DNA from: Candidatus Nomurabacteria bacterium RIFCSPHIGHO2_02_40_30
GTDB taxonomy: Bacteria > Patescibacteriota > Minisyncoccia > Phycocordibacterales > UBA9973
Direction of reading: 5' to 3'
Length of the DNA stretch: 64,000 bases
Assembly: GCA_001785445.1 (NCBI GenBank)
Contig: MFTV01000016.1
Location: 6,259-70,258 of the forward strand
Shown here: positions 3,639-44,954 of the stretch, in pieces
How positions within the stretch are numbered: the first letter of the stretch is position 1
Layout of the letters: each line of letters starts with the position of its first letter
The notes under the pieces: model-generated
What the model saw: only the letters and a program-made list of their open reading frames with translations
Databases searched by the model: none
Told to the model about the DNA's origin: nothing
Translations under genes and position numbers: made by a program

Positions 3639-5549
3639 TTATACCTTTATATCATCTTTCTTCTTTAAAACAATACCATGAGCTGTCAATATTTTCTCAT
3701 ACTCTTCTTGTTCCAGAGTTTCCACTTCAATTAACTTTTGGGCTATGGCATTGAATGCTTTTTTATGTTCTTTCAGTACTTTTTCTGCAGTTTTTAAGCC
3801 GTCATTTATCATTCTGGAAACTTCCGCATCCACTTTCACTCCGACTGCTTCAGAATATTCTTTCTCCATAATCTCACCAAATTGTGTCCTGCCGAGAGCG
3901 GGAGCTAGGGCAATAGGGCCGATGGCATCCGACATCCCGAAACGGGTGACCATGGCGCGAGCTAGGTTTGTCGCCACCGATAAATCAGAGGACGGTCCGG
4001 TCGTAATATCTCCGAAGATCATTTGCTCGGCGACGTAGCCACCGAGAGACATGGCGATGTCATCTATGAATTCTTTTTTTGACTGCAATCTTTTTTCTTC
4101 AAGCGGTAATTTGAGAGTATACCCTCCGGCATTGCCGCGAGAGATGATGGAAACTTTGTGCACTGGGTCGGCATACGGCAATACTGAAGCGACAAGCGCA
4201 TGCCCTGCTTCGTGATACGCGGTAATTTCTTTTTCTTTTTTGGATAGCAAATGGCTTTTGCGCTCCGGACCTAACATAACTTTCTCAATAGCGCGAATTA
4301 AGTCAAACTGAAAAACTTTTTTTCTATTTTCTCGCGCCGCCAATATCGCCCCTTCGTTCATCAGTGAATACAAATCCGCACCGGAGAATCCGGGAGTGCG
4401 CTCGGCCACTAATTTCAAATTAATATCTTCCGCCAATGGCTTTTGGGCTGCGTGAATTAATAGTATCGCTTCGCGGTCAGCACGATCCGGCAGATCAAGA
4501 ATTACTTTTCTGTCAAAACGCCCAGGACGAATGAGAGCTGGGTCTAAAACATCCGGCCTATTGGTGGCCGCCATCACTATCACTTTGTCATTCGGCTCAA
4601 AGCCATCCATTTCCACCAAGATTTGATTTAAGGTCTGCTCACGCTCATCGTTGCCTCCGCCAAACCCACCTCCACGCGTACGTCCTATAGCATCTATTTC
4701 ATCCACGAAGATTATGGCTGGCGCAGCTTTTTTGGCCATTTTAAAAAGGTCTCGCACCCGAGAAGCCCCCACTCCTACAAACATTTCTACGAACTCACTT
4801 CCAGATAAATGGAAAAATGGCACGCCGGCCTCCCCTGCCACCGCCCTCGCCAGCAAAGTCTTGCCTGTCCCCGGAGCGCCGGTTAGTATCACGCCTTTGG
4901 GAATTCTAGCCCCAATGTCTAGAAATTTCTTCGGGCTTTTCAAAAAATCCACGATTTCTTTTAATTCCTCTTTGGCTTCCTTGCAGCCGGCCACATCTTT
5001 AAAAGTTACTTTATTGTTTTTATCATTCGGGTCGGTGATGCGAGCTTTAGACTGACCGAAGGAAAGCGCCTGCATGCCCGCGCCTTTCACTTGCCGAGAT
5101 ATATACCAAAAGAAAATTAATATAAAAAATATCGGCAATAAAAACGGCAAAATATTTAAAAGCCAGAACATGAACCCACTTTCATCTTTTATTTGTATTT
5201 CAGTTTTTGCGAGAGCCTCATTCGTTACTCCATAATTAAAAAGTGTCTGCGAAAATGCCAAGCCTACTTCTTTTTTCGCTGTCTTCACGTCATTGTTCTG
5301 GTAAGTAATAGAGAGCTTGTCGCCCTCAACTAAAATAGTTTTTACATCTCCTGCTCCCACACTTTTTGCTAAATCAGAAATTGCAACTTCCGGCATAACT
5401 TTGCCGTCGCCGGAAATCACTAAATAGGCTGCGGTAATAAGCATAAAGATAAGTACTGCTCCGGCAATACTACTCGGCAAATTCGCTCCTTGTTTCATCT
5501 TTTTGCCTTTATTTTGCAGGTCGTTTTTATTTAGAAAATTAAAATCCAT
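3639..5549 (-). CDS. ftsH: ATP-dependent zinc metalloprotease FtsH
   Basis: N-terminal TM region, Walker [16 protein letters not shown] zinc site, 636 aa. Confidence 0.95.
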
Positions 5550-5597
5550 TGCTACACATTAGCATAAAACAAACTGAAAGAAAAGACTGAAAAATTT

Positions 5598-6059
5598 ATG
5601 GTAAGATTAAATATGGCTCATTATGCGGAAAATAGAAAAGCGAGATTTGATTATGAAATTCTAGAAAAATACGAATCGGGTATTGAGCTTTTGGGTTCGG
5701 AAGTAAAGAGTGTGCGAGGGGGGCAAATGTCGCTTGAGGGAGCTTTTGTCATTGTTCGTGGAGGCGAATGTTTTTTAATCAATGCCAATGTTCCAGCCTA
5801 TCAACCTAAAAATGCGCCAAAGGATTATGACCCTTTGCGAAATAGAAAACTTTTGCTAACCAAAAAAGAAATTGCCGAACTGGCAGGCAGTGAAAAAAAC
5901 AAGAGTTTGACAATTGTGCCTATTTCAGTGTATAATAAAGGTAGAAAAATCAAAGTAGAAATTGCTTTGGTTAAAGGAAAAAAGAAACGCGACAAGCGTG
6001 AGACTATAAAAAAACGTGAGACTGATAGAGAAATCAGAAGAGAAATAAAAGAACGTTGA
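5598..6059 (+). CDS. smpB: SsrA-binding protein SmpB (true start may be Met at 5613)
   Basis: AENRKARFDYEILEKYESGIELLGSEVKSVR matches the SmpB N-terminal signature. Lys/Arg-rich C-terminal tail. Confidence 0.9.
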   Translation: MVRLNMAHYAENRKARFDYEILEKYESGIELLGSEVKSVRGGQMSLEGAFVIVRGGECFLINANVPAYQPKNAPKDYDPLRNRKLLLTKKEIAELAGSEKNKSLTIVPISVYNKGRKIKVEIALVKGKKKRDKRETIKKRETDREIRREIKER

Positions 6060-6070
6060 AAAATAAATTT

Positions 6071-6458
6071 GGGGATGCAAGGCATAGACAGTTGGTCTAT
6101 TTGCATTGATGCATACCGAGCATGAACATAACCTCGTAAAAATTTGTTCAAATGTTAATTGCAAAATTAGCTACTAAAGTGAAAAACGCTGTTTCTCCAT
6201 ACTTCGGTATGAATGACTTCGCTTTCGCTTCGGTTTCCGCTTACGCGTAACCGATGTCTCTCTTATAGACTTCCGATATATGAGATGGGGCATAATATTA
6301 TCGGGATAGGAGAAAGACTTTCCTGACTTTTTTCCAAAACAAAAGGAATCGATTAAAAAATATTTGGCTCGTTTCTTAATTTTTTAATTTAAACAAAAAG
6401 CGCGCTACGTATGTAGACTTCACTGCAAACTCCCTCTGCACTGGGATTCAATTTCCCA
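6071..6458 (+). ncRNA. ssrA: tmRNA (ssrA)
   Basis: 5' GGGGATG pairs with 3' CATCTCC (one G-U). tRNA-like T arm TGGGA-TTCAATT-TCCCA sits immediately before the acceptor 3' strand. Internal TGCATACCGAG...CCTCGTAAAAA resembles the conserved PK1/resume-region sequence of E. coli tmRNA. An alanine-rich tag frame ends ...FAFASVSAYA then TAA near 6246. Directly downstream of smpB. Confidence 0.7.
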
Positions 6459-6606
6459 CATCTCCACTCGACTCATTCTGTCTATGACAGAATTCGCTCG
6501 TGGCAAGCCACAGCGGAAAATACCCTGAAGAATTTGAAGGGTGTTTTGAGGCGAGTGCCCTGAGCGACGAGTTGAACGAGGAGTCGAATGGGCATATAAT
6601 CCTATT

Positions 6607-6889: not shown

Positions 6890-7399
6890 CTATTTTTGAC
6901 TCAAGTGCCAAGCTGTTTCAGTGCTTTTCTTTACCCCTTCACCAAGGTTCTCACCAAGTTTTAAAAATTCATCAATTATTTCAACTTTAGTTTGTTCTTC
7001 TTCAATTTTTTTGTTACCCCACATTAACTCTTTAAATTTAAAATGAGCAATTTTATTTCTAGAATCGTTTAGCTTTTTTAAAAAATTTATAAAGGGTTTC
7101 CATTGTGGCACATCGCTTCCATACAATTCAGTCATTTTCTCCATAATTTTTATTTTCCCCATAAAACTAATTTCCTCAAACACATATTCAAAAAATTCAT
7201 CACTCTTTGGCATACCTCCTAGTTTTGCCCAATTAGAAAGTTCTACCCACATAGCGGTAGTGGCTATTTGTTTTTCACATAAACAGGTAAGCCAAAAAAT
7301 AAAATTAACTGTTTCTATTTCTTTCTTAGTAATAGATAATTTATCTTCCACAGCACCCATTAGTCCTTTCAAATATTCGCTTTCTTTTTCAGTTTCCAT
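6890..7399 (-). CDS. Hypothetical protein with HEPN/Abi_2-like R-x4-H motif
   Basis: 169 aa. C-terminal LNDSRNKIAHFKF fits the Rx4-6H HEPN signature seen in Abi-type proteins. No other family signal. Confidence 0.35.
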   Translation of the reverse strand: METEKESEYLKGLMGAVEDKLSITKKEIETVNFIFWLTCLCEKQIATTAMWVELSNWAKLGGMPKSDEFFEYVFEEISFMGKIKIMEKMTELYGSDVPQWKPFINFLKKLNDSRNKIAHFKFKELMWGNKKIEEEQTKVEIIDEFLKLGENLGEGVKKSTETAWHLSQK

Positions 7400-19087: not shown

Positions 19088-19621
19088 CTACAAACCAAAG
19101 TAAGTCTTTAATTTCTTGTCGTCCAAAATTTTATCCACCTCCAAAATTTCTATGTGTCTACGAACTCCGAAAAAGTCAGCCACAAAGAGTATCTCCCCTT
19201 CGCATGGATACGGATAGATCCATGCGCTTTTTTGGAATTTGAAAAAGCCTAGATCTTTTAGTTTCCATCTAAATGCATCGCGCGCTTTTTTAAATCTAAT
19301 AGGCAGGTCATACATTACTAAACTCCATTTTCCGTCCCATTTCTTTGGATTTTTTATCATAACCTCATCAATCAAAATATCCTGCAATTTATTTTCGCCT
19401 TTTGGGGTAAGCACGTTTGTATTTTCCCCTGCTACATGCCTTATAAATCTATAGCGCCTAAATCCATAGAGAATCCGTCTAGCCTCCCGGCTTTCATGCA
19501 AATGGGGCGGTAACTTTTCTCCAAGCGCAATAGAACAAAGAATGCTTTGCGCCAAATTTATCCCCTCGCCTCCAGCGCTAAACAATTTCTTAAGTTTTAT
19601 GACATGTTTTCGTTCAACCAT
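19088..19621 (-). CDS. PaaX-family-like small regulator (wHTH plus WDGKW middle domain; Cas2/VapD-like motif V-MYD...Q-S-W)
   Basis: 177 aa. KKWDGKWSLVMYDLP...FQKSAWIYPYP resembles the PaaX middle region. Paralog of 39042-39446. Confidence 0.5.
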   Translation of the reverse strand: MVERKHVIKLKKLFSAGGEGINLAQSILCSIALGEKLPPHLHESREARRILYGFRRYRFIRHVAGENTNVLTPKGENKLQDILIDEVMIKNPKKWDGKWSLVMYDLPIRFKKARDAFRWKLKDLGFFKFQKSAWIYPYPCEGEILFVADFFGVRRHIEILEVDKILDDKKLKTYFGL

Positions 19622-28832: not shown

Positions 28833-29672
28833 TTATTTATTCTTACCAGTCTTTCTGCGGGAAACGATAAATATATTCGAGTATTTCTTTGGTCCACGAG
28901 TCTTGCGCCCACCGGTAACCTTGCCCCACATCGTCTTCGGGCGCTTGGTGCCTCGGCCTTGTCTGCCTTCACCTCCACCATATGGGTGGTCTACTGGGTT
29001 CATGGCAGTACCACGCACAGTTGGGCGGATACCCTTCCAGCGGCTGCGTCCGGCTTTACCATAATTTTCCAAATGATGTTCTTCATTTGAGACCGTGCCG
29101 ATGGACGCCCAGCATTCTTCATTAATTTTTCTAATTTCTGTCGAAGGCATTTTCAAATTAGTATAGCCGTCAGCATTGGCCACCACTTGCGCAAAAATTC
29201 CTGCCGAACGGCCAATTTTAGCTCCACCTCTTGGTTTGATTTCAATATTGTAGACAAAAGTTCCAACTGGAATATTTCGGAGTGGCAGTCTGTTCGCAGA
29301 TGTAAGCGGCGCTTTTTCGGAAACAATAAAAGAGTCTCCGGCTTTTACAGATTTCGGCAAGACTACATACCTTTTTTCCCCGTCCTTATACACAGCAAGC
29401 CCGATAAAAGCTGAACGATTCGGGTCATATTCTATAGATGTTATTTTTGCCGGAATGTCTTTTTTGTCATACAAAAAGTCCACTTCACGATAAAGTCGTT
29501 TGTGCCCGCCACCCTTGTGTCGCATGGTTATGCGCCCTTGGCTATTTCTGCCGACTGAACGACGGAAGCCATGGGTCAGAGATTTGACAGGAGAAGACTT
29601 GGTCAAAATCTCTGCATAATTCACATTGGTCATTTGTCTCCTTGATTTGCTTGTAGGTTTGTATGTTTTCAT
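28833..29672 (-). CDS. rplB: 50S ribosomal protein L2
   Basis: 279 aa, GGGHKRLYR. Confidence 0.95.
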   Translation of the reverse strand: MKTYKPTSKSRRQMTNVNYAEILTKSSPVKSLTHGFRRSVGRNSQGRITMRHKGGGHKRLYREVDFLYDKKDIPAKITSIEYDPNRSAFIGLAVYKDGEKRYVVLPKSVKAGDSFIVSEKAPLTSANRLPLRNIPVGTFVYNIEIKPRGGAKIGRSAGIFAQVVANADGYTNLKMPSTEIRKINEECWASIGTVSNEEHHLENYGKAGRSRWKGIRPTVRGTAMNPVDHPYGGGEGRQGRGTKRPKTMWGKVTGGRKTRGPKKYSNIFIVSRRKTGKNK

Positions 29673-38580: not shown

Positions 38581-38653
38581 AAAAAAAGCGCTTTACGCGC
38601 TAAGAATAATATACATTATTAGATGTTTTTTTGCAAATTACTTATAAAAATTT

Positions 38654-38911
38654 TTAAGGTGATTTTTGTTTTAGTTGTTTTTCAAGATTATATATTTCGT
38701 CGTCAACTTCATCCATTTGTTTATTTAACAAATCCAACCCTTCTTGATACGCTTGAACCAAATCCCCATGACCAGGGAATGGTACTCTGTCTTGTGCTTC
38801 TTGCATTGACTCCCTTCTTTGTCTCATTGAATCAAATTTCCTTCTTAAACCTTCTAACTTCAGACTAATTTCATTAGTTCCTTTATTTACCTGTGGCCCT
38901 TCCATTCCCAT
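38654..38911 (-). CDS. Hypothetical coiled-coil protein
   Basis: 85 aa, charged and helical. Part of the insertion between fusA and rpsG. Confidence 0.4.
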   Translation of the reverse strand: MGMEGPQVNKGTNEISLKLEGLRRKFDSMRQRRESMQEAQDRVPFPGHGDLVQAYQEGLDLLNKQMDEVDDEIYNLEKQLKQKSP

Positions 38912-38989
38912 AAATTTTTAAGTCAAATTAAAAAAGCTTTAATAATACCTAAAGTATACGCCCACCATGTAGCAAGTCAAGAAAGAATC

Positions 38990-39028
38990 TAGTGAATTGC
39001 TAGAATTACATATATGCGCGATAGCGTA
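38990..39028. repeat. CATATGCG-family repeat P4 (TAGTGAATTGCTAG...ATATGCGCGATAGCG)
   Basis: Left half matches P2 (TAGTGAATTCTAG). ATATGCGC-ATAGC is repeated at 39444-39460. Confidence 0.6.
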
Positions 39029-39041
39029 AATGTGTAAATAC

Positions 39042-39446
39042 TTAAATATTCCCCTCTTTTCCTGTATACGATTTCGCTAGCTTAAAAGTTTTCAGGTGAG
39101 CTTTGAGTCCAATAGCTTTTACATAATCCAAAAAATCTTTTGGCAGTGGCGATGGTCCTACCCACACACTTCTTTGAATCATTTCGTAATTAAATTTCTG
39201 CAAGTGTCGACGAAACCAGTCTCTTTCTTTTTTCTTATCATCTGTAATGTCATACATTACTATCAGATTTTTAGGTGCATCTTTAGTAAAATGACAAGAA
39301 AATGCTAGGTGATAAAATTTCCTTTTGCGATCTTTCTTCTTTGCCCGACTCTCATCAAGCCAAATAGGTAAACCAAAAGCGTTAACTTTGACTCCTTTGT
39401 AGTTAAAAGTTCTTCCCATGGGTAAATTATACCTCCGACTACACAT
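39042..39446 (-). CDS. PaaX-like/Cas2-like small protein, paralog of 19088-19621
   Basis: 134 aa. LIVMYDITDDKKKERDWFRRHLQKFNYEMIQRSVWVGPSP aligns with WSLVMYDLPIRFKKARDAFRWKLKDLGFFKFQKSAWIYPYP. Confidence 0.5.
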   Translation of the reverse strand: MCSRRYNLPMGRTFNYKGVKVNAFGLPIWLDESRAKKKDRKRKFYHLAFSCHFTKDAPKNLIVMYDITDDKKKERDWFRRHLQKFNYEMIQRSVWVGPSPLPKDFLDYVKAIGLKAHLKTFKLAKSYTGKEGNI

Positions 39447-39460
39447 ATGCGCTATAGCAG
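39444..39460. repeat. CATATGCG-family repeat P5 (CATATGCGCTATAGCAG), includes the start codon of 39042-39446
   Basis: Direct repeat of the core of P4. Confidence 0.6.
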
Positions 39461-39494
39461 ATATATGTATAATTATTTTTGAGTTCTAAAAACT

Positions 39495-39755
39495 CTAAAA
39501 CTGTAGCGATGTAACTGCACATGCACACAAAGCTAAAATCAAGGAGAGTATCAAAAACTTTGTACGATGGCTACCTATAAATGCAGATCGGTTTCCAAAC
39601 CAAGTTTTTGGTAAAAGCCAGATGATTAAAAAAGCCAAAGAAAAAAACCACAATATTAATACAGCTTGAAAATACGCTACGCAGAGATAGTTCTCTGGGT
39701 TATCACACGAATTGTTGAGACCGAAAATCATAATTATATTATAACAATAATACAA
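39495..39755 (-). CDS. Hypothetical small membrane protein
   Basis: 86 aa, two hydrophobic helices. Confidence 0.35.
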   Translation of the reverse strand: MYYCYNIIMIFGLNNSCDNPENYLCVAYFQAVLILWFFSLAFLIIWLLPKTWFGNRSAFIGSHRTKFLILSLILALCACAVTSLQF

Positions 39756-40729: not shown

Positions 40730-41356
40730 CTAGAGCGCAAGACCAGTTAAGAGGTGAAATAGATAAGCTAGGATTGGGTACAAATAATCAGAAAAGAAAA
40801 CGATGAAAATTAGCAGTAAAATCAGTGACTGTTGTTCGTAAGCCAGAATGAAGTTAAAAGCTGATTCTGGAAGAAAAGAAAAGAGTATTTTCGAGCCATC
40901 AAGAGGCGGAATTGGAACTAGGTTAAATACCCCTAAAGCTAGATTCACAATAACAATTGTAGAAGTTATGAAGTAAAAACTCTCTGGCAAGGCATACTGC
41001 ATAAGAAAAGTAAGGCGAATAATAATACCGAAGATAACTGCAATAGAAAAATTTGCCAAAACTCCCGCGCAGGCCACAGCCATAGTTCCCCATCTTCTAT
41101 TGCTTAAATTGTTCGGATTGTATGGCACCGGTTTTGCCCAGCCGAAAAGAAATGGGGAGTGAGAAATTATCAAAACCACCGGTAAAATTATTGAGCCGAA
41201 TAAATCCAAATGTTTCAAAGGATTTAAAGTGAGCCGTCCGGCATAGCGGGCAGTCTTGTCGCCAAAATATTCTGCCATAAAGCCATGCGAGACTTCGTGT
41301 ATCACCACAGACATAATAAGTATGACTATATAAAATAGGCCGTTGGTTGCATCCAT
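40730..41356 (-). CDS. Site-2 protease family (M50) membrane metalloprotease
   Basis: HEVSHG HExxH in TM1. Start trimmed so it does not overlap rpmB. Confidence 0.7.
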   Translation of the reverse strand: MDATNGLFYIVILIMSVVIHEVSHGFMAEYFGDKTARYAGRLTLNPLKHLDLFGSIILPVVLIISHSPFLFGWAKPVPYNPNNLSNRRWGTMAVACAGVLANFSIAVIFGIIIRLTFLMQYALPESFYFITSTIVIVNLALGVFNLVPIPPLDGSKILFSFLPESAFNFILAYEQQSLILLLIFIVFFSDYLYPILAYLFHLLTGLAL

Positions 41357-41387
41357 GTAATTTCTATGATAGCATGTGGGAACTATT

Positions 41388-41636
41388 ATGAAAACTTGCG
41401 TCATAACCAAAAAGAGCTCAATCGTCGGGGGCGGATATTCTAACAGAACCCGTGCCACTCAATTCAACCCGACTGGCAAAAAGCGAAAATACTTAAATCT
41501 TCAAAAGAAGAAGATTTTTATTCCGGAACTCAACAAATCCATGAGAATCAAAGTTTCCGTGCAGGGCATGCGCACCATGAAAAAAAATGGCGCCTACGCC
41601 ACTCTCCTCAAAGCCGGATTAATACAAGCGAAGTAG
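41388..41636 (+). CDS. rpmB: 50S ribosomal protein L28
   Basis: MKTCVITKKSSIVGGGYSNRTRATQ...VSVQGMRTMKKNG. The 3' end lies in a 26-bp sequence duplicated at 42264-42289. Confidence 0.8.
   Translation: MKTCVITKKSSIVGGGYSNRTRATQFNPTGKKRKYLNLQKKKIFIPELNKSMRIKVSVQGMRTMKKNGAYATLLKAGLIQAK
41593..41618. repeat. 26-bp direct repeat, copy 1 (CCTACGCCACTCTCCTCAAAGCCGGA), inside the rpmB 3' end
   Basis: Identical to 42264-42289. Confidence 0.9.
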
Positions 41637-41730
41637 GCTTGCATCGATTTTTACTACATGGTATATTATAAGTGTACCTGTGGGCGCAAGCCCCTTATCG
41701 GCTAAGGATTTTCCAAAGCTGAAGACAGGT

Positions 41731-41762
41731 ATATAAAAGAAACCAAGCCCACGCTTGGTCTT
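41731..41762. terminator. Bidirectional rho-independent terminator (ACCAAGC-ccacg-GCTTGGT with T-runs on both sides)
   Basis: Hairpin followed by CTTTTTTATTTT on plus and TTCTTTT on minus. Confidence 0.6.
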
Positions 41763-41769
41763 TTTTATT

Positions 41770-42264
41770 TTAGTCTTCGTCTATTCCAGAAATATAAAGT
41801 CTTTGATCATAAGGCATTACACTCCAAAATATTATATGGCCGTCACCTACTTGTTTTATGATAATTTTTATTTTATGTTTTTTGTCACTCAAGATGGCGT
41901 GAAAACCCCAATATTGAACTTGCTTCATTTTATAAAAACCACTCTGTTGCGGTTTGCCATACTTTTCTATTTGTATCCTATATTCTTGAAGAGTTCCACA
42001 TTTAGGAATTATTTCTACTGCTTTTTTTATAAGTATAAGCTTTAGTGTCTGTTCTTTTATATTTCTTGGAACACGATTAGGCTTATATTGAAGATGGTTG
42101 AACCCATCTGAATTTAGAATTATCTTAGCTTGAAAATATGGACAATAAATTTCTTTGTTGGTTTCGTAAATTAATTTTGCTTTTTCGTGAACACTCTTAA
42201 AATCTTTCATAGCAAAAAGTATAACATAAAAAATGAGAACTAAAAAAAATGAGGAAAAAGACAC
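41770..42264 (-). CDS. Hypothetical protein (164 aa, N-terminal TM anchor), cargo of the rpmB-3' insertion
   Basis: GTG start per ORF track. No recognised family. Confidence 0.45.
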   Translation of the reverse strand: MSFSSFFLVLIFYVILFAMKDFKSVHEKAKLIYETNKEIYCPYFQAKIILNSDGFNHLQYKPNRVPRNIKEQTLKLILIKKAVEIIPKCGTLQEYRIQIEKYGKPQQSGFYKMKQVQYWGFHAILSDKKHKIKIIIKQVGDGHIIFWSVMPYDQRLYISGIDED

Positions 42265-42289
42265 CTACGCCACTCTCCTCAAAGCCGGA
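42264..42289. repeat. 26-bp direct repeat, copy 2
   Basis: Would give an alternative L28 C-terminus ...KAGLV-stop if joined to the rpmB body. Confidence 0.9.
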
Positions 42290-42308
42290 CTGGTTTAAAA
42301 CCAGTAAA

Positions 42309-43631
42309 CTATTTTACGTTAATTGTTTCTATAATTTTCTCTATCTCTTTTTCATAACTTTCGTAATCTGGGTATGTTGCCTCTACTCTCAAAATACTAA
42401 TATTATTTGCTACAGTTTCGTAATGAACAGATTCGTTTGATTCTTTTTTTTCTTTCCGTTTATAAAATTCGTATTTACCAATTTTGATTAATTGTGTATT
42501 TGGGGGACGATTTTTTACTACGGCTTCAATAGAACTACTATCATTAAACTTGGTCAACGAGATGACTGCCTGAAATGGATCCTGAATAAGATATAGACTC
42601 ATGGATACTTCGTCCCTAGCCTGCTCATAAAGCTTATAAACTGAAGAATAATTAAATGAAACAAAATAGCTATCAAAAAATTTTACAGAACTGGCATCTT
42701 GTTGAATAAAACCAGTTTTTGGATCAACTATATAACGTCTATGATTTTTTATACTCATCAAACACTGTTCTTCCGTATGCGAAATAAGTTGATTTGTTTC
42801 ACAGAAATTTGGATCTATATATTTCCAATACCTTGAAGAATCCATAGAAAATAGTTCAGTCTCTGTAATTGGAACACTTTTGTCAATTTGGTTATACACT
42901 TTCAATTTACAGAGTTTATTAAATTCTTCACCCGGCTTAACTGAAGCAATCATTCTATTACTAAAATCTGGACCTTCTAAATACTTAATACCAACTAATT
43001 TATATAGAACGTTCAATTTTTTCTTAGTAACCAAAAAACTATCATGAAACTCAAAGAGTATTACACCAGTATTTTTTAAATATTTTTCACCACTCTTATT
43101 ATCAAATTCTTCTTTCAAAATATCTGGGTCGGTTGAAATTCCCAAAGTCGTACTTTTGAGAATTTCTTTGTTGCCATAAACTGGAATGGTGATTTGCTTG
43201 CCATCAGAAGTACTAAGTATACGATTACTATCATTACTATCTTGTGTATAACCTAAATTATATTCACATAATTTCTGTTCACCTATTCCGCCAAGGATTG
43301 CTAAAATAAGTATAATAATTAAAGAAACAACAAATTTATATCTTATGTTAAGTTTATCGACGATATAATAAAGAATTCCAGAAAGTTTATAAAATAAGAC
43401 TAACATTAAAATAACCCCAGGGATAATAGTGATGGGGTTAGGTAAACCGGGAAAGTAACCACCAGTTAAAAAAAGCTCTGGAAGAAAGTAAAACGGAAAC
43501 CAAAAAATATGCAAGAGAAAATCCAACGAAGGATTCCAGAAATATATTGACCACGGGGAAAAATAATAAAAAGTAAGAAATATTGGCAAAACTGATAGGA
43601 AAAATATTCCTTTAGTTTTTATCTTGTCCAT
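42309..43631 (-). CDS. Hypothetical membrane protein (4 N-terminal TM, large extracytoplasmic domain)
   Basis: 440 aa, Lys/Asn/Tyr-rich. No recognisable domain. Confidence 0.55.
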   Translation of the reverse strand: MDKIKTKGIFFLSVLPIFLTFYYFSPWSIYFWNPSLDFLLHIFWFPFYFLPELFLTGGYFPGLPNPITIIPGVILMLVLFYKLSGILYYIVDKLNIRYKFVVSLIIILILAILGGIGEQKLCEYNLGYTQDSNDSNRILSTSDGKQITIPVYGNKEILKSTTLGISTDPDILKEEFDNKSGEKYLKNTGVILFEFHDSFLVTKKKLNVLYKLVGIKYLEGPDFSNRMIASVKPGEEFNKLCKLKVYNQIDKSVPITETELFSMDSSRYWKYIDPNFCETNQLISHTEEQCLMSIKNHRRYIVDPKTGFIQQDASSVKFFDSYFVSFNYSSVYKLYEQARDEVSMSLYLIQDPFQAVISLTKFNDSSSIEAVVKNRPPNTQLIKIGKYEFYKRKEKKESNESVHYETVANNISILRVEATYPDYESYEKEIEKIIETINVK

Positions 43632-43652
43632 GATTAGTATTTTATCATAGAT

Positions 43653-44954
43653 TTACGCTGGCACGAAGGTCAGGGCTGTGCCAGCTTTGCCGGAGCGGCC
43701 AGTGCGGCCGATGCGATGCACGTAGGTATCGTAGGTTTGTGGCACATCATAGTTTATGACATGAGTCACATCAGGAATGTCTAGCCCCCTAGCTGCCACA
43801 TCTGTCGCAATCAGTATATTTATTTTGTCCTGCTTGAAAGAGTCCAATATGCGGATGCGTTCTCGGCTTCTTTTATCACCATGAATGCCGCCCACTTTGA
43901 AGCCCATATGAGAAAGTTCTTTGGCTAGTGTATCTACGCTGTGTTTCATCTCACGGAAAATTAAAACTTTGTCCGAGCCGTCTTTTTTCAAAACTTCATG
44001 AAGTTTTTCTAATTTTTCTTCTTTACTTCTGGTACGAATCACATCTTGGTGGATGTTTTTTGCTGTTTCCCCAGAAATTACGGAAATAAACGCAGGATTT
44101 TTCAAATATTGTTCGGTTAACTTTTTAATTTCCGGAGAAAGTGTAGCAGAGAAGAAAAGTGTCTGCCTTTCTTTATTGGTTTTGCCGATTATGTAAATCA
44201 TGTCGTCACGAAAGCCCATGTCGAGCATACGGTCAGCCTCGTCTAGCACCACGCTGTGGCATGTCGAGAGGTCGAGAATTTTTTTCTCTATTAGGTCGCG
44301 AAGTCTTCCTGGAGTTCCGATGACGAAAGACACACCAAGTTTTATTTCACGGATTTGCTTCATAATAGGCAGACCTCCTACGCATGCTACAGAAAACATC
44401 CCGAACCCGAATGCAAGATTTTTAAAATCAGATTCTATCTGCAGTGCCAGCTCGCGAGTCGGCGCCATGATAAGAATCATTTCTCTTTTATTCTGTCCTC
44501 TGGTCTTTGCAACTTTCTCAATCAACGGTAAAAGAAATGCTGCAGTCTTGCCGGTACCGGTATTGGCCATACCGAAAACATCCCTGCCCTCGAGTATTGT
44601 AGGAATGGATTGGTCTTGAATCGGACGTGGATGAACATAGCCTGCTTTCGAAATATTTTTATGTAGTTGAGCATTAAAAGGAAAATTAGCAAAAGTATGT
44701 TTCGACACATAAGGCTTTTCTTCTACATGAGTTCCCTTCTTTATGAAACGAGAAAAATCTATTCTCTCTCCACGAGAACGCTTGTTACTACTTGGTCGTC
44801 TATTTCCGCCACTCTTAAAACCACCACTTTTGAAAGTAGGCCTAGAAGTATTGCTGTATATTCTTTTTGTTCCTCCACCAAAACTAGGTTTAGTTTTAAA
44901 AGCAGAAGTGTGATTGCCGAATTTCTTCGGAGAAGCCGAATGAGTTTTGTACAT
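43653..44954 (-). CDS. DEAD-box ATP-dependent RNA helicase
   Basis: Q motif, GTGKTAAF, VLDEADRMLDMGF, HRIGRTGR. Gly/Ser/Arg-rich N-terminal tail. Confidence 0.9.
   Translation of the reverse strand: MYKTHSASPKKFGNHTSAFKTKPSFGGGTKRIYSNTSRPTFKSGGFKSGGNRRPSSNKRSRGERIDFSRFIKKGTHVEEKPYVSKHTFANFPFNAQLHKNISKAGYVHPRPIQDQSIPTILEGRDVFGMANTGTGKTAAFLLPLIEKVAKTRGQNKREMILIMAPTRELALQIESDFKNLAFGFGMFSVACVGGLPIMKQIREIKLGVSFVIGTPGRLRDLIEKKILDLSTCHSVVLDEADRMLDMGFRDDMIYIIGKTNKERQTLFFSATLSPEIKKLTEQYLKNPAFISVISGETAKNIHQDVIRTRSKEEKLEKLHEVLKKDGSDKVLIFREMKHSVDTLAKELSHMGFKVGGIHGDKRSRERIRILDSFKQDKINILIATDVAARGLDIPDVTHVINYDVPQTYDTYVHRIGRTGRSGKAGTALTFVPA

Follow-up and report, generated by a model that had tools for sequence, protein, structure and literature searches.

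The window analysed here is a stretch of 64,000 nucleotides from contig MFTV01000016.1 of Candidatus Nomurabacteria bacterium RIFCSPHIGHO2_02_40_30, in which the end of rpmB, the gene for ribosomal protein L28, occurs a second time downstream of the gene with a small cargo between the two copies. The repeat is one instance of a recurrent mode of gene gain, and the cargo is a widespread, unannotated unit composed of a protein gene, here called ORF146 (ORF, open reading frame), and the gene for a structured small RNA (sRNA). The explanation towards which we lean is a duplicative insertion, of the type produced by host homologous recombination, of incoming DNA in which a piece of the conserved gene end was already present. 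Bacteria of the Candidate Phyla Radiation (CPR) have tiny genomes with very few recognisable mobile elements, and their gain of accessory genes is poorly understood. The rpmB locus represents a reproducible route of such gain, in which small cargo is placed beside conserved essential genes and the gene end is duplicated with no element-encoded recombinase.

The rpmB gene lies at 41388..41636 on the + strand of the window and encodes an 82-residue L28 that matches Pfam PF00830 (Ribosomal_L28) with 37.6 bits versus a cut-off of 27 and has 100% identity with P0001, an L28 of a Candidatus Nomurabacteria bacterium. An earlier reading of the same DNA, made from the sequence only, had reported that a 26-nt piece of the rpmB end recurs downstream, and this was confirmed: CCTACGCCACTCTCCTCAAAGCCGGA is an exact 26-bp direct repeat with exactly two occurrences in the window, at 41593-41618 and 42264-42289, both on the + strand. 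The number of matches expected by chance is 0, even when three mismatches are allowed. Copy 1 falls within the last 44 nt of rpmB. Both copies have AAAAAAAATG in frame ahead of them; copy 2 differs there by three mismatches and an insertion of 9 nt. The similarity thus reaches leftwards of the exact core, and the duplicated segment covers about -56 to -18, counted from the end of the rpmB stop codon. The functional rpmB tail segment (copy 1) was placed at 41580..41618 and the non-functional, truncated second rpmB tail (copy 2) at 42242..42289, both on the + strand. The two-copy arrangement was found in 24 contigs from four independent assemblies or samples (JGI 3300025323, JGI 3300025326, GCA_001786905.1 and GCA_003488805.1), as well as in the related locus L092 (related loci are given by L numbers throughout), and its recurrence in independent assemblies rules out the assembly artefact that had been raised as a caution.

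As the sequence-only reading had described, L28 ends ...KAGLIQAK-TAG through copy 1, and copy 2 in the same frame reads ...KAGLV-TAA. Its proposal that ...KAGLV-stop was the ancestral end did not survive its own test, the comparison with orthologues. The C-termini of the 120 closest L28 orthologues were ...KAGL(I/V)(K/Q/E)A(K/R) or at most three residues shorter (e.g. ...KAGLIK); none of the 120 ended in ...KAGLV-stop, and the ...KAGLIQAK terminus was common to many orthologues, which makes the copy-1 terminus the family-typical one. Copy 2 is cut on its right, directly after GCCGGA, by a hairpin (ACTGGTTTAAAACCAGT, 42289..42305) and the 3' end of a second inserted gene, ORF440, at whose end this hairpin stands as the source of the fortuitous ...LV-TAA reading. 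The ORF146 unit of L005 joins its copy 2 at a junction homologous to that of the window, and copy 2 is there a complete tail with stop codon and terminator. The simplest view is that the LV-stop reading arose secondarily, through a later insertion of ORF440; ORF440 may also have been earlier than the unit, with a truly shortened L28 in the immediate ancestor.

Related rpmB loci from reference genomes (n = 80) were sampled within +/-4 kb of rpmB, and their neighbouring genes were located by tblastn. The layout in Nomurabacteria-like genomes is S12 and M50 peptidase genes on one strand, rpmB on the other, and a DEAD-box helicase gene convergent with rpmB. Empty sites in related genomes, which the sequence-only reading had anticipated, were found at eight loci (L013, L015, L017, L019, L020, L021, L024 and L026), where the convergent rpmB and helicase genes are 8-57 bp apart and usually have one terminator hairpin in common. 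In the window, the helicase gene (43653..44954, - strand; Pfam DEAD and Helicase_C), the ancestral convergent neighbour of rpmB, is separated from it by 2,020 bp with a G+C fraction of 0.26-0.35, versus 0.40-0.49 in the flanking genes. The insert had been put at 645 bp, a figure to be replaced by the 2.0 kb of DNA that lies between rpmB and its ancestral neighbour. Other relatives carry 150-3,300 bp of heterogeneous small cargo in this gap, which includes a ParE toxin gene with a partner gene (L016), PaaX_M/Cas2-like genes (L023 and L034), genes for a DUF3800 protein (L025), a metallopeptidase-like protein (L031) and a PsbP-like protein (L032), and further genes for membrane proteins and several ORFs without a family. 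The empty sites together with the heterogeneous cargo identify the region between rpmB and the DEAD-box helicase gene as a recurrent insertion hotspot in Nomurabacteria and Paceibacteria. A tandem tail duplication without cargo was found at none of the 80 loci, and among the same loci, sampled to +/-4 kb, no related integrase-bearing element with this att site was seen.

A second rpmB 3' end is present downstream of the cargo in at least nine lineages, with unrelated cargos. It is exact over 26 nt in the window (WIN), over 34 nt in L031, where it stands 3.3 kb away, and over 46 nt in L087, a distant lineage. The second tail measures 31 nt in both L016 and L032 and 37 nt in L034; it extends over -56..+37 in L005-L008 (92%), including stop codon and terminator, and over -56..+36 in L028 (87%), and that of L023 is decayed. 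Second copies mostly keep the frame, and the stop is at the homologous position in six of eight pairs, three times as a different stop codon. Codons were compared in eight tail pairs, among them a tuf tail from L119 described below. The differing codons comprised 34 synonymous and 16 non-synonymous ones, a bias that was significant relative to both 25% synonymous, the expectation for random changes (p = 2e-10), and 40%, the expectation for a functional copy paired with one in neutral decay (p = 6e-5). The synonymous bias and the retained stops point to two functional alleles of the gene end in tandem and not to a fresh target-site duplication. At L016, copy 2 abuts the stop codon of the helicase gene, as in the empty sites, which suggests that copy 2 may there be the resident tail.

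The gene on the opposite side of the hotspot can be duplicated as well. At L005 (3819-3874 and 4681-4736), and also at L006-L008 and L093, the end of the helicase gene occurs twice over 56 nt (its last 52 nt with the stop codon and the next 4 nt). Seven codons differ between the two L005 helicase tails, six of them synonymously and one, at the left edge, non-synonymously. The order at L005 is rpmB tail, terminator, ORF108, second helicase tail, sRNA/ORF146, second rpmB tail, second terminator and helicase gene, and at L023 a second helicase tail is followed by a PaaX_M gene and a second rpmB tail. In both layouts the complete rpmB/helicase junction appears in two versions, one after the other, and the cargo occupies the new joint between them. 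Such tandem junction versions are expected from a single crossover with a circle or from interchromatid pairing.

The cargo of the window is a conserved unit of about 0.6 kb, made up of the ORF146 gene, the sRNA gene, a terminator common to both and one promoter for each. The unit was found in hundreds of Paceibacteria loci at many different sites, for example after rplJ-rplL and before purH (L009) or beside topA (L011). It often stands between duplicated stretches of local sequence: at approximately 17 distinct loci, direct repeats of 26-133 nt that do not belong to the element flank it on both sides. The last 100 nt of tuf are duplicated around the unit at L119, where seven of the eight differing codons are synonymous; an 82-nt 3' end of a neighbouring gene is duplicated exactly at L166, and at L167/L169, L009 and L011 the promoter and 5' end of a neighbour are duplicated. 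When both repeat copies were required to lie no more than 300 nt from the unit, and windows in the same contigs served as controls, 6 of 46 distinct units were bracketed versus 0 of 170 control windows (p = 7e-5). No transposon-like terminal motifs were found in common at the unit ends beyond the promoters. Judged by its distribution, the ORF146-sRNA unit is horizontally acquired and mobile among many loci. One unit that occurs with duplications of many targets, of variable length, is hard to reconcile with a dedicated att site.

Under insertion by host homologous recombination, incoming DNA would bear a captured piece of a conserved host gene end, and host homologous recombination would join it to the chromosome. 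One possible route would be the single-crossover (Campbell-type) integration of a circularised fragment. A second would be 'alternative pairing' as in the tandem duplications of natural transformation, a process that makes such duplications during transformation (Johnston et al. 2013, PMC3784515). Both routes would duplicate the common segment on either side of the cargo and leave rpmB intact, with copy 1 completing the working L28 gene and copy 2 being a dead second tail that was truncated later by ORF440. The sequence-only reading had remarked that no recombinase lies between the repeats, and indeed no recombinase or transposase domains were detected in ORF146, in ORF440, in 20 cargo proteins of relatives or in 20 other ORFs of the window. 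The rpmB locus resembles Campbell-type integration and alternative pairing (PMC3784515) in the duplication of a common segment on either side of the insert, in the allelic differences between copies, in the variable repeat length and in needing no element-encoded recombinase, and these processes also give the tandem layout of L005 and L023. The known cases, however, involve kilobase repeats, insertion sequence copies or laboratory constructs and duplications of 100-900 kb, whereas the homologies at rpmB are only tens of bases long, in a stable, recurrent natural architecture around small accessory genes.

Several observations weigh against host recombination. In the window and L005, in L028 and in L087 the duplicated tail begins on its left at a similar position (about -56 to -58), and in the window and L031 perfect identity stops at one and the same codon (...GCYGGA); both features might reflect a fixed crossover position used by a site-specific recombinase. 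When each copy was compared with the tails of the nearest relatives, the imported copy could not be distinguished, the sequences being short and the sampling sparse. Neither a circular or excised form nor a unit-free population variant was present among the 24 contigs, all of which carry the insert. Finally, the synonymous bias could also be the product of a duplication in situ in which allelic replacement later changed the working copy.

Of the other explanations, the one that survives best, although we hold it to be rather unlikely, is integration at a specific site, catalysed by a tyrosine or serine recombinase whose gene lies elsewhere. In that case attB would be the 3' end of rpmB, the repeats would be attL and attR, and the islands would be integrase-less elements, either cis-mobilisable or decayed. 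Action of a recombinase in trans fits a direct repeat that overlaps the 3' end of a conserved gene and leaves the gene intact, the empty sites in relatives, the repeated use of the site by unrelated cargo, the similar left boundary (about -56) in several lineages, and identity blocks of 26-46 nt that are followed by a diverged but functional-looking terminus. [quoted passage not shown] Like the rpmB islands, these elements insert at the 3' end of a small conserved ribosomal-protein gene, are flanked by direct repeats and leave the gene intact; unrelated elements reuse the site, and integrase-less remnants accrete there. Unlike them, the rpmB islands have no integrase, relaxase or any other mobility gene and are only 0.4-3.3 kb long, their repeats are 26-95 nt of allele-like gene tail with no defined short core, the tail of the opposite gene is sometimes duplicated, and the same cargo unit is found with many other targets.

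Against a recombinase in trans, neither the nine cargo islands nor those ORFs of the window that were tested contained an integrase. Different cargos have no conserved arm sequences beside the repeats. The ORF146-sRNA unit is bracketed by duplications of many targets, 26-133 nt long, and the tail of the opposite flanking gene is duplicated in L005 and L023, which an att core does not predict. The rpmB tail was also considered as a viral attP, and the pattern TAYGCNACNCTYCTCAAAGCYGGA had no match in IMG/VR viral contigs. A transfer RNA, transfer-messenger RNA (tmRNA) or known RNA as the integration target was rejected, there being none near the site. The locus combines two features of an integrative element, flanking direct repeats with an intact target gene and an empty site in relatives, and lacks two others, an internal tyrosine or serine recombinase gene and a single specific target per element family. 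The features of a transposon were not found either: there is no transposase, and the repeats are 26-133 nt long and variable, with copies that differ like functional alleles. Integration with a replacement terminus, as the sequence-only reading had put it, is broadly right in view of the empty sites, the second tails and the allele-like copies; its ancestral LV ending was not borne out, and the many targets of the unit and the doubled helicase tails fit host homologous recombination better than a dedicated att site.

A local origin is improbable. In this scenario the rpmB tail, terminator and helicase tail would have been duplicated in tandem in situ, by slippage or unequal crossing-over, the duplication would have become a neutral 'safe harbour' for later cargo, and the working copies would then have diverged by allelic replacement. 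It gains from L005 and L023, which resemble whole-junction tandem duplications with cargo at the novel joint, and from the perfectly identical blocks in the window, L031 and L087. It is contradicted by the differences between the copies, which are too synonymous for a neutrally decaying dead copy (the p = 6e-5 versus 40% given above), and by the dead copies that retain the stop position, sometimes as a different stop codon. Unrelated loci, moreover, repeat the architecture around the ORF146-sRNA unit, and many independent duplications would be needed to capture the unit.

Homology-facilitated illegitimate recombination, a process known in transformable bacteria (PMC3240628), appears very improbable here. 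A linear donor would be anchored by homology in rpmB and its other end joined illegitimately at the A-rich KKNG codons, so that the resident tail came to lie downstream of the cargo. On its left, copy 2 does begin in an A-rich run (AAAAAGAATGG) beside the A/T-rich cargo ends, but the duplicated helicase tail in L005 and L023 and the blocks of perfect identity followed by diverged termini would go unexplained. We give scarcely any credence to chance similarity, an assembly artefact or a regulatory repeat such as antisense pairing of a transcript upstream of ORF146 with the rpmB messenger RNA (mRNA), for although the reverse complement of copy 2 is upstream of ORF146 and contains GAGGAG, no chance matches are expected and independent assemblies agree, the predicted ORF146 promoter is downstream of copy 2, and the duplicated segment varies in extent by lineage and is an entirely different sequence at other loci, which leaves no conserved sequence function.

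Integration at the 3' ends of ribosomal-protein genes was known, and the arrangement in these CPR bacteria departs from it in that insertion at conserved gene ends duplicates the tail and involves no recombinase of the element; the cargo joins an undescribed small RNA to an uncharacterised protein family. A literature search on integration hotspots in the CPR returned nothing specific. If host recombination is the true explanation, conserved gene termini would be universal landing pads for gene flow between species, and the dead second 'tails' could be used as scars of horizontal transfer in metagenome-assembled genomes.

The sRNA gene of the unit lies on the + strand. Its predicted promoter (41639..41667) begins 3 nt past the rpmB stop codon and consists of a -35 element, TTGCAT (41639-41644), a 17-nt spacer and a TGn-extended -10 element, TATATT (41662-41667); -35/-10-like elements are found at an equal distance in homologous units. 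The RNA is about 95 nt long, and its core (41673..41741) is a three-way junction of a closing stem P1, a hairpin P2 with a GNRA loop and a long hairpin P3. It is convergent with ORF146, immediately downstream of that gene on the opposite strand. A bidirectional intrinsic terminator (41742..41766) is common to the sRNA (+ strand) and ORF146 (- strand); the terminator scan scored a terminator-like hairpin at 41742-41759 on both strands, in agreement with the sequence-only reading, and the stem is retained in homologues despite different sequences.

The sRNA was present in 79 of the 82 loci that encode ORF146 homologues (45-100% identity of the homologues) and had enough downstream sequence, and its sequence is better conserved than the ORF146 protein. 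In the sRNA alignment, 99.2% of the cells were paired and six pairs showed compensatory double changes. These pairing values were reached by 0 of 500 shuffles, and shifted registers were 28-47% paired. A covariance model of the RNA (R1) gave one strong copy in the window, at 41673-41741 (86.4 bits, E = 3e-28). No Rfam family matched at gathering scores, nothing relevant was found at E <= 10 in 41560-42340, and a search of the literature on this RNA found nothing specific. Two weak R1 matches were also noted on the - strand of the window, at 28834-28919 (16.1 bits, E = 0.006) and 5266-5334 (14.8 bits, E = 0.016), with E-values from a roughly calibrated model; they are inside ribosomal-protein and other coding regions and are probably due to chance.

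In homologous units, a DnaA-box consensus (TTATCCACA or its complement) was found at an almost constant position, 44-57 nt before the first stem of the sRNA and just upstream of the -35 element. It occurs in 31 of 66 distinct units, 19 of them exact, where shuffles lead one to expect about 2 and 0.1, respectively. The units with the box include those of L009, L095, L098, L101, L104, L113, L117, L124, L127, L129, L140, L143, L145, L155, L158, L160, L161 and L164; the unit of the window itself has none. The position of the box suggests a DnaA-dependent control of the sRNA or, alternatively, a conserved end of the unit.

ORF146 (41770..42210, - strand, ATG at 42210) is predicted to encode a soluble protein of 146 residues from an uncharacterised family of about 400 clusters. 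The sequence-only reading had described the antisense gene as coding for a 164-residue protein with a transmembrane anchor, which requires a GTG extension to 42264. This form was rejected: homologues are mostly 146-160 residues long and do not align to the hydrophobic N-terminal 18 residues, the internal ATG is the start in gene calls on most contigs, and a conserved -10 element precedes that ATG. The protein is most likely the 146-residue form without a hydrophobic N-terminus. The predicted TGn-extended -10 element (TGTTATACT on the - strand, 42218..42226) is conserved in the window, L005 and L009. It ends 7 nt before the ATG with no Shine-Dalgarno sequence in between (42211-42226), and the ORF146 mRNA is probably leaderless or near-leaderless. 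The duplicated neighbour gene of L167/L169 has a similar arrangement, with TATACT followed by 5 nt and ATG. Sequence searches of Pfam, PHROGs, PADLOC, NCBIfam and the PDB gave no significant match for ORF146, and a Foldseek structure search against the PDB gave none either; the protein shows a weak fold resemblance to ribonucleases (RNases) of the RelE/CdiA-CT/BrnT/colicin D type. Two tandem ORF146-family paralogues were seen at L129 (1006-1467 and 1742-2224), and at L124 an exact tandem duplication of a 160-residue gene lies beside the unit (4673-5155 and 5356-5838), with a flanking 37-nt repeat in a third copy.

The unit was compared with type III toxin-antitoxin systems (ToxIN, CptIN and TenpIN) and with RNase toxins of the RelE/BECR fold. 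Like a type III system, it couples the gene of a small protein tightly to that of a small non-coding RNA, and a terminator separates the two. As with toxin-antitoxin genes, the ORF146-sRNA pair is found in variable, island-like contexts beside other toxin-antitoxin-like cargo. Its sRNA, however, is single-copy, convergent and downstream of the protein gene, whereas the type III RNA consists of tandem repeats upstream of the toxin on the same strand, and ORF146 belongs to no ToxN, CptN or TenpN family. There is weak support for the cargo being a selfish protein-RNA pair, possibly an RNase-like toxin that would be checked by the sRNA or would act with it. A broader proposal, which we put forward only tentatively, is that ORF146-sRNA may be an undescribed selfish module, toxin/antitoxin-like or ribonucleoprotein, with a DnaA-box promoter in many copies, that would spread recombinase-free by means of captured host gene ends (rpmB, tuf, promoters) and host recombination. 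If true, such 'hitch-hiking on conserved gene ends' would account for the remaining small cargo islands of the hotspot as well. In any case the pair is a specific and testable candidate for a protein-RNA system of a new kind, from an uncultivated lineage.

The remainder of the gap between rpmB and the helicase gene is taken up by ORF440 (42309..43631, - strand), a low-GC gene for 440 residues with a membrane-like N-terminus that represents a second, lineage-specific insert in the hotspot. Its only two database matches are both near-identical, which makes it an orphan found in this species only. No Pfam, PHROGs, PADLOC or NCBIfam match was obtained for it, and it was absent from all relatives examined at the rpmB locus. 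ORF440 lies on the strand of the helicase gene, 21 nt downstream of its stop codon (43632-43652 between them), and the two genes are probably transcribed together. Its N-terminus is multi-helix and hydrophobic.

On the other side of rpmB, the mechanically called ORF of the M50 peptidase (40730-41458, 242 residues, GTG start) overlaps the rpmB start. Peptidase calls on most other contigs are for a 208-residue form (40730-41356), and L003 alone has 224 residues; with the 208-residue form, the two genes are divergently oriented and about 30 bp apart.

Other small inserts were noted elsewhere in the window. The normally contiguous pair rpsG-fusA is split by a low-GC insert of about 1.2 kb (38600-39750), whose ORFs on the - strand (38654-38905 and 39042-39446) include a 134-residue PaaX_M/Cas2-like gene and a family-less ORF of 83 residues. 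The PaaX_M gene is flanked by a 14-nt near-repeat, ATATGCGC[G/T]ATAGC, at 39012-39025 and 39445-39458; no longer direct repeat was found around this insert. A second PaaX_M/Cas2-like gene of the window (177 residues, 19088-19621, - strand) belongs to the same family as the hotspot cargo of L023 and L034, and small genes of this kind appear to recur as floating cargo in the neighbourhood of ribosomal-protein operons. In another part of the window (6890-7399 and 6071-6469), a 169-residue ORF with a weak HEPN (RiboL-PSP) match follows directly downstream on the tmRNA gene; it could be another small defence- or toxin-like gene beside a classic integration target.

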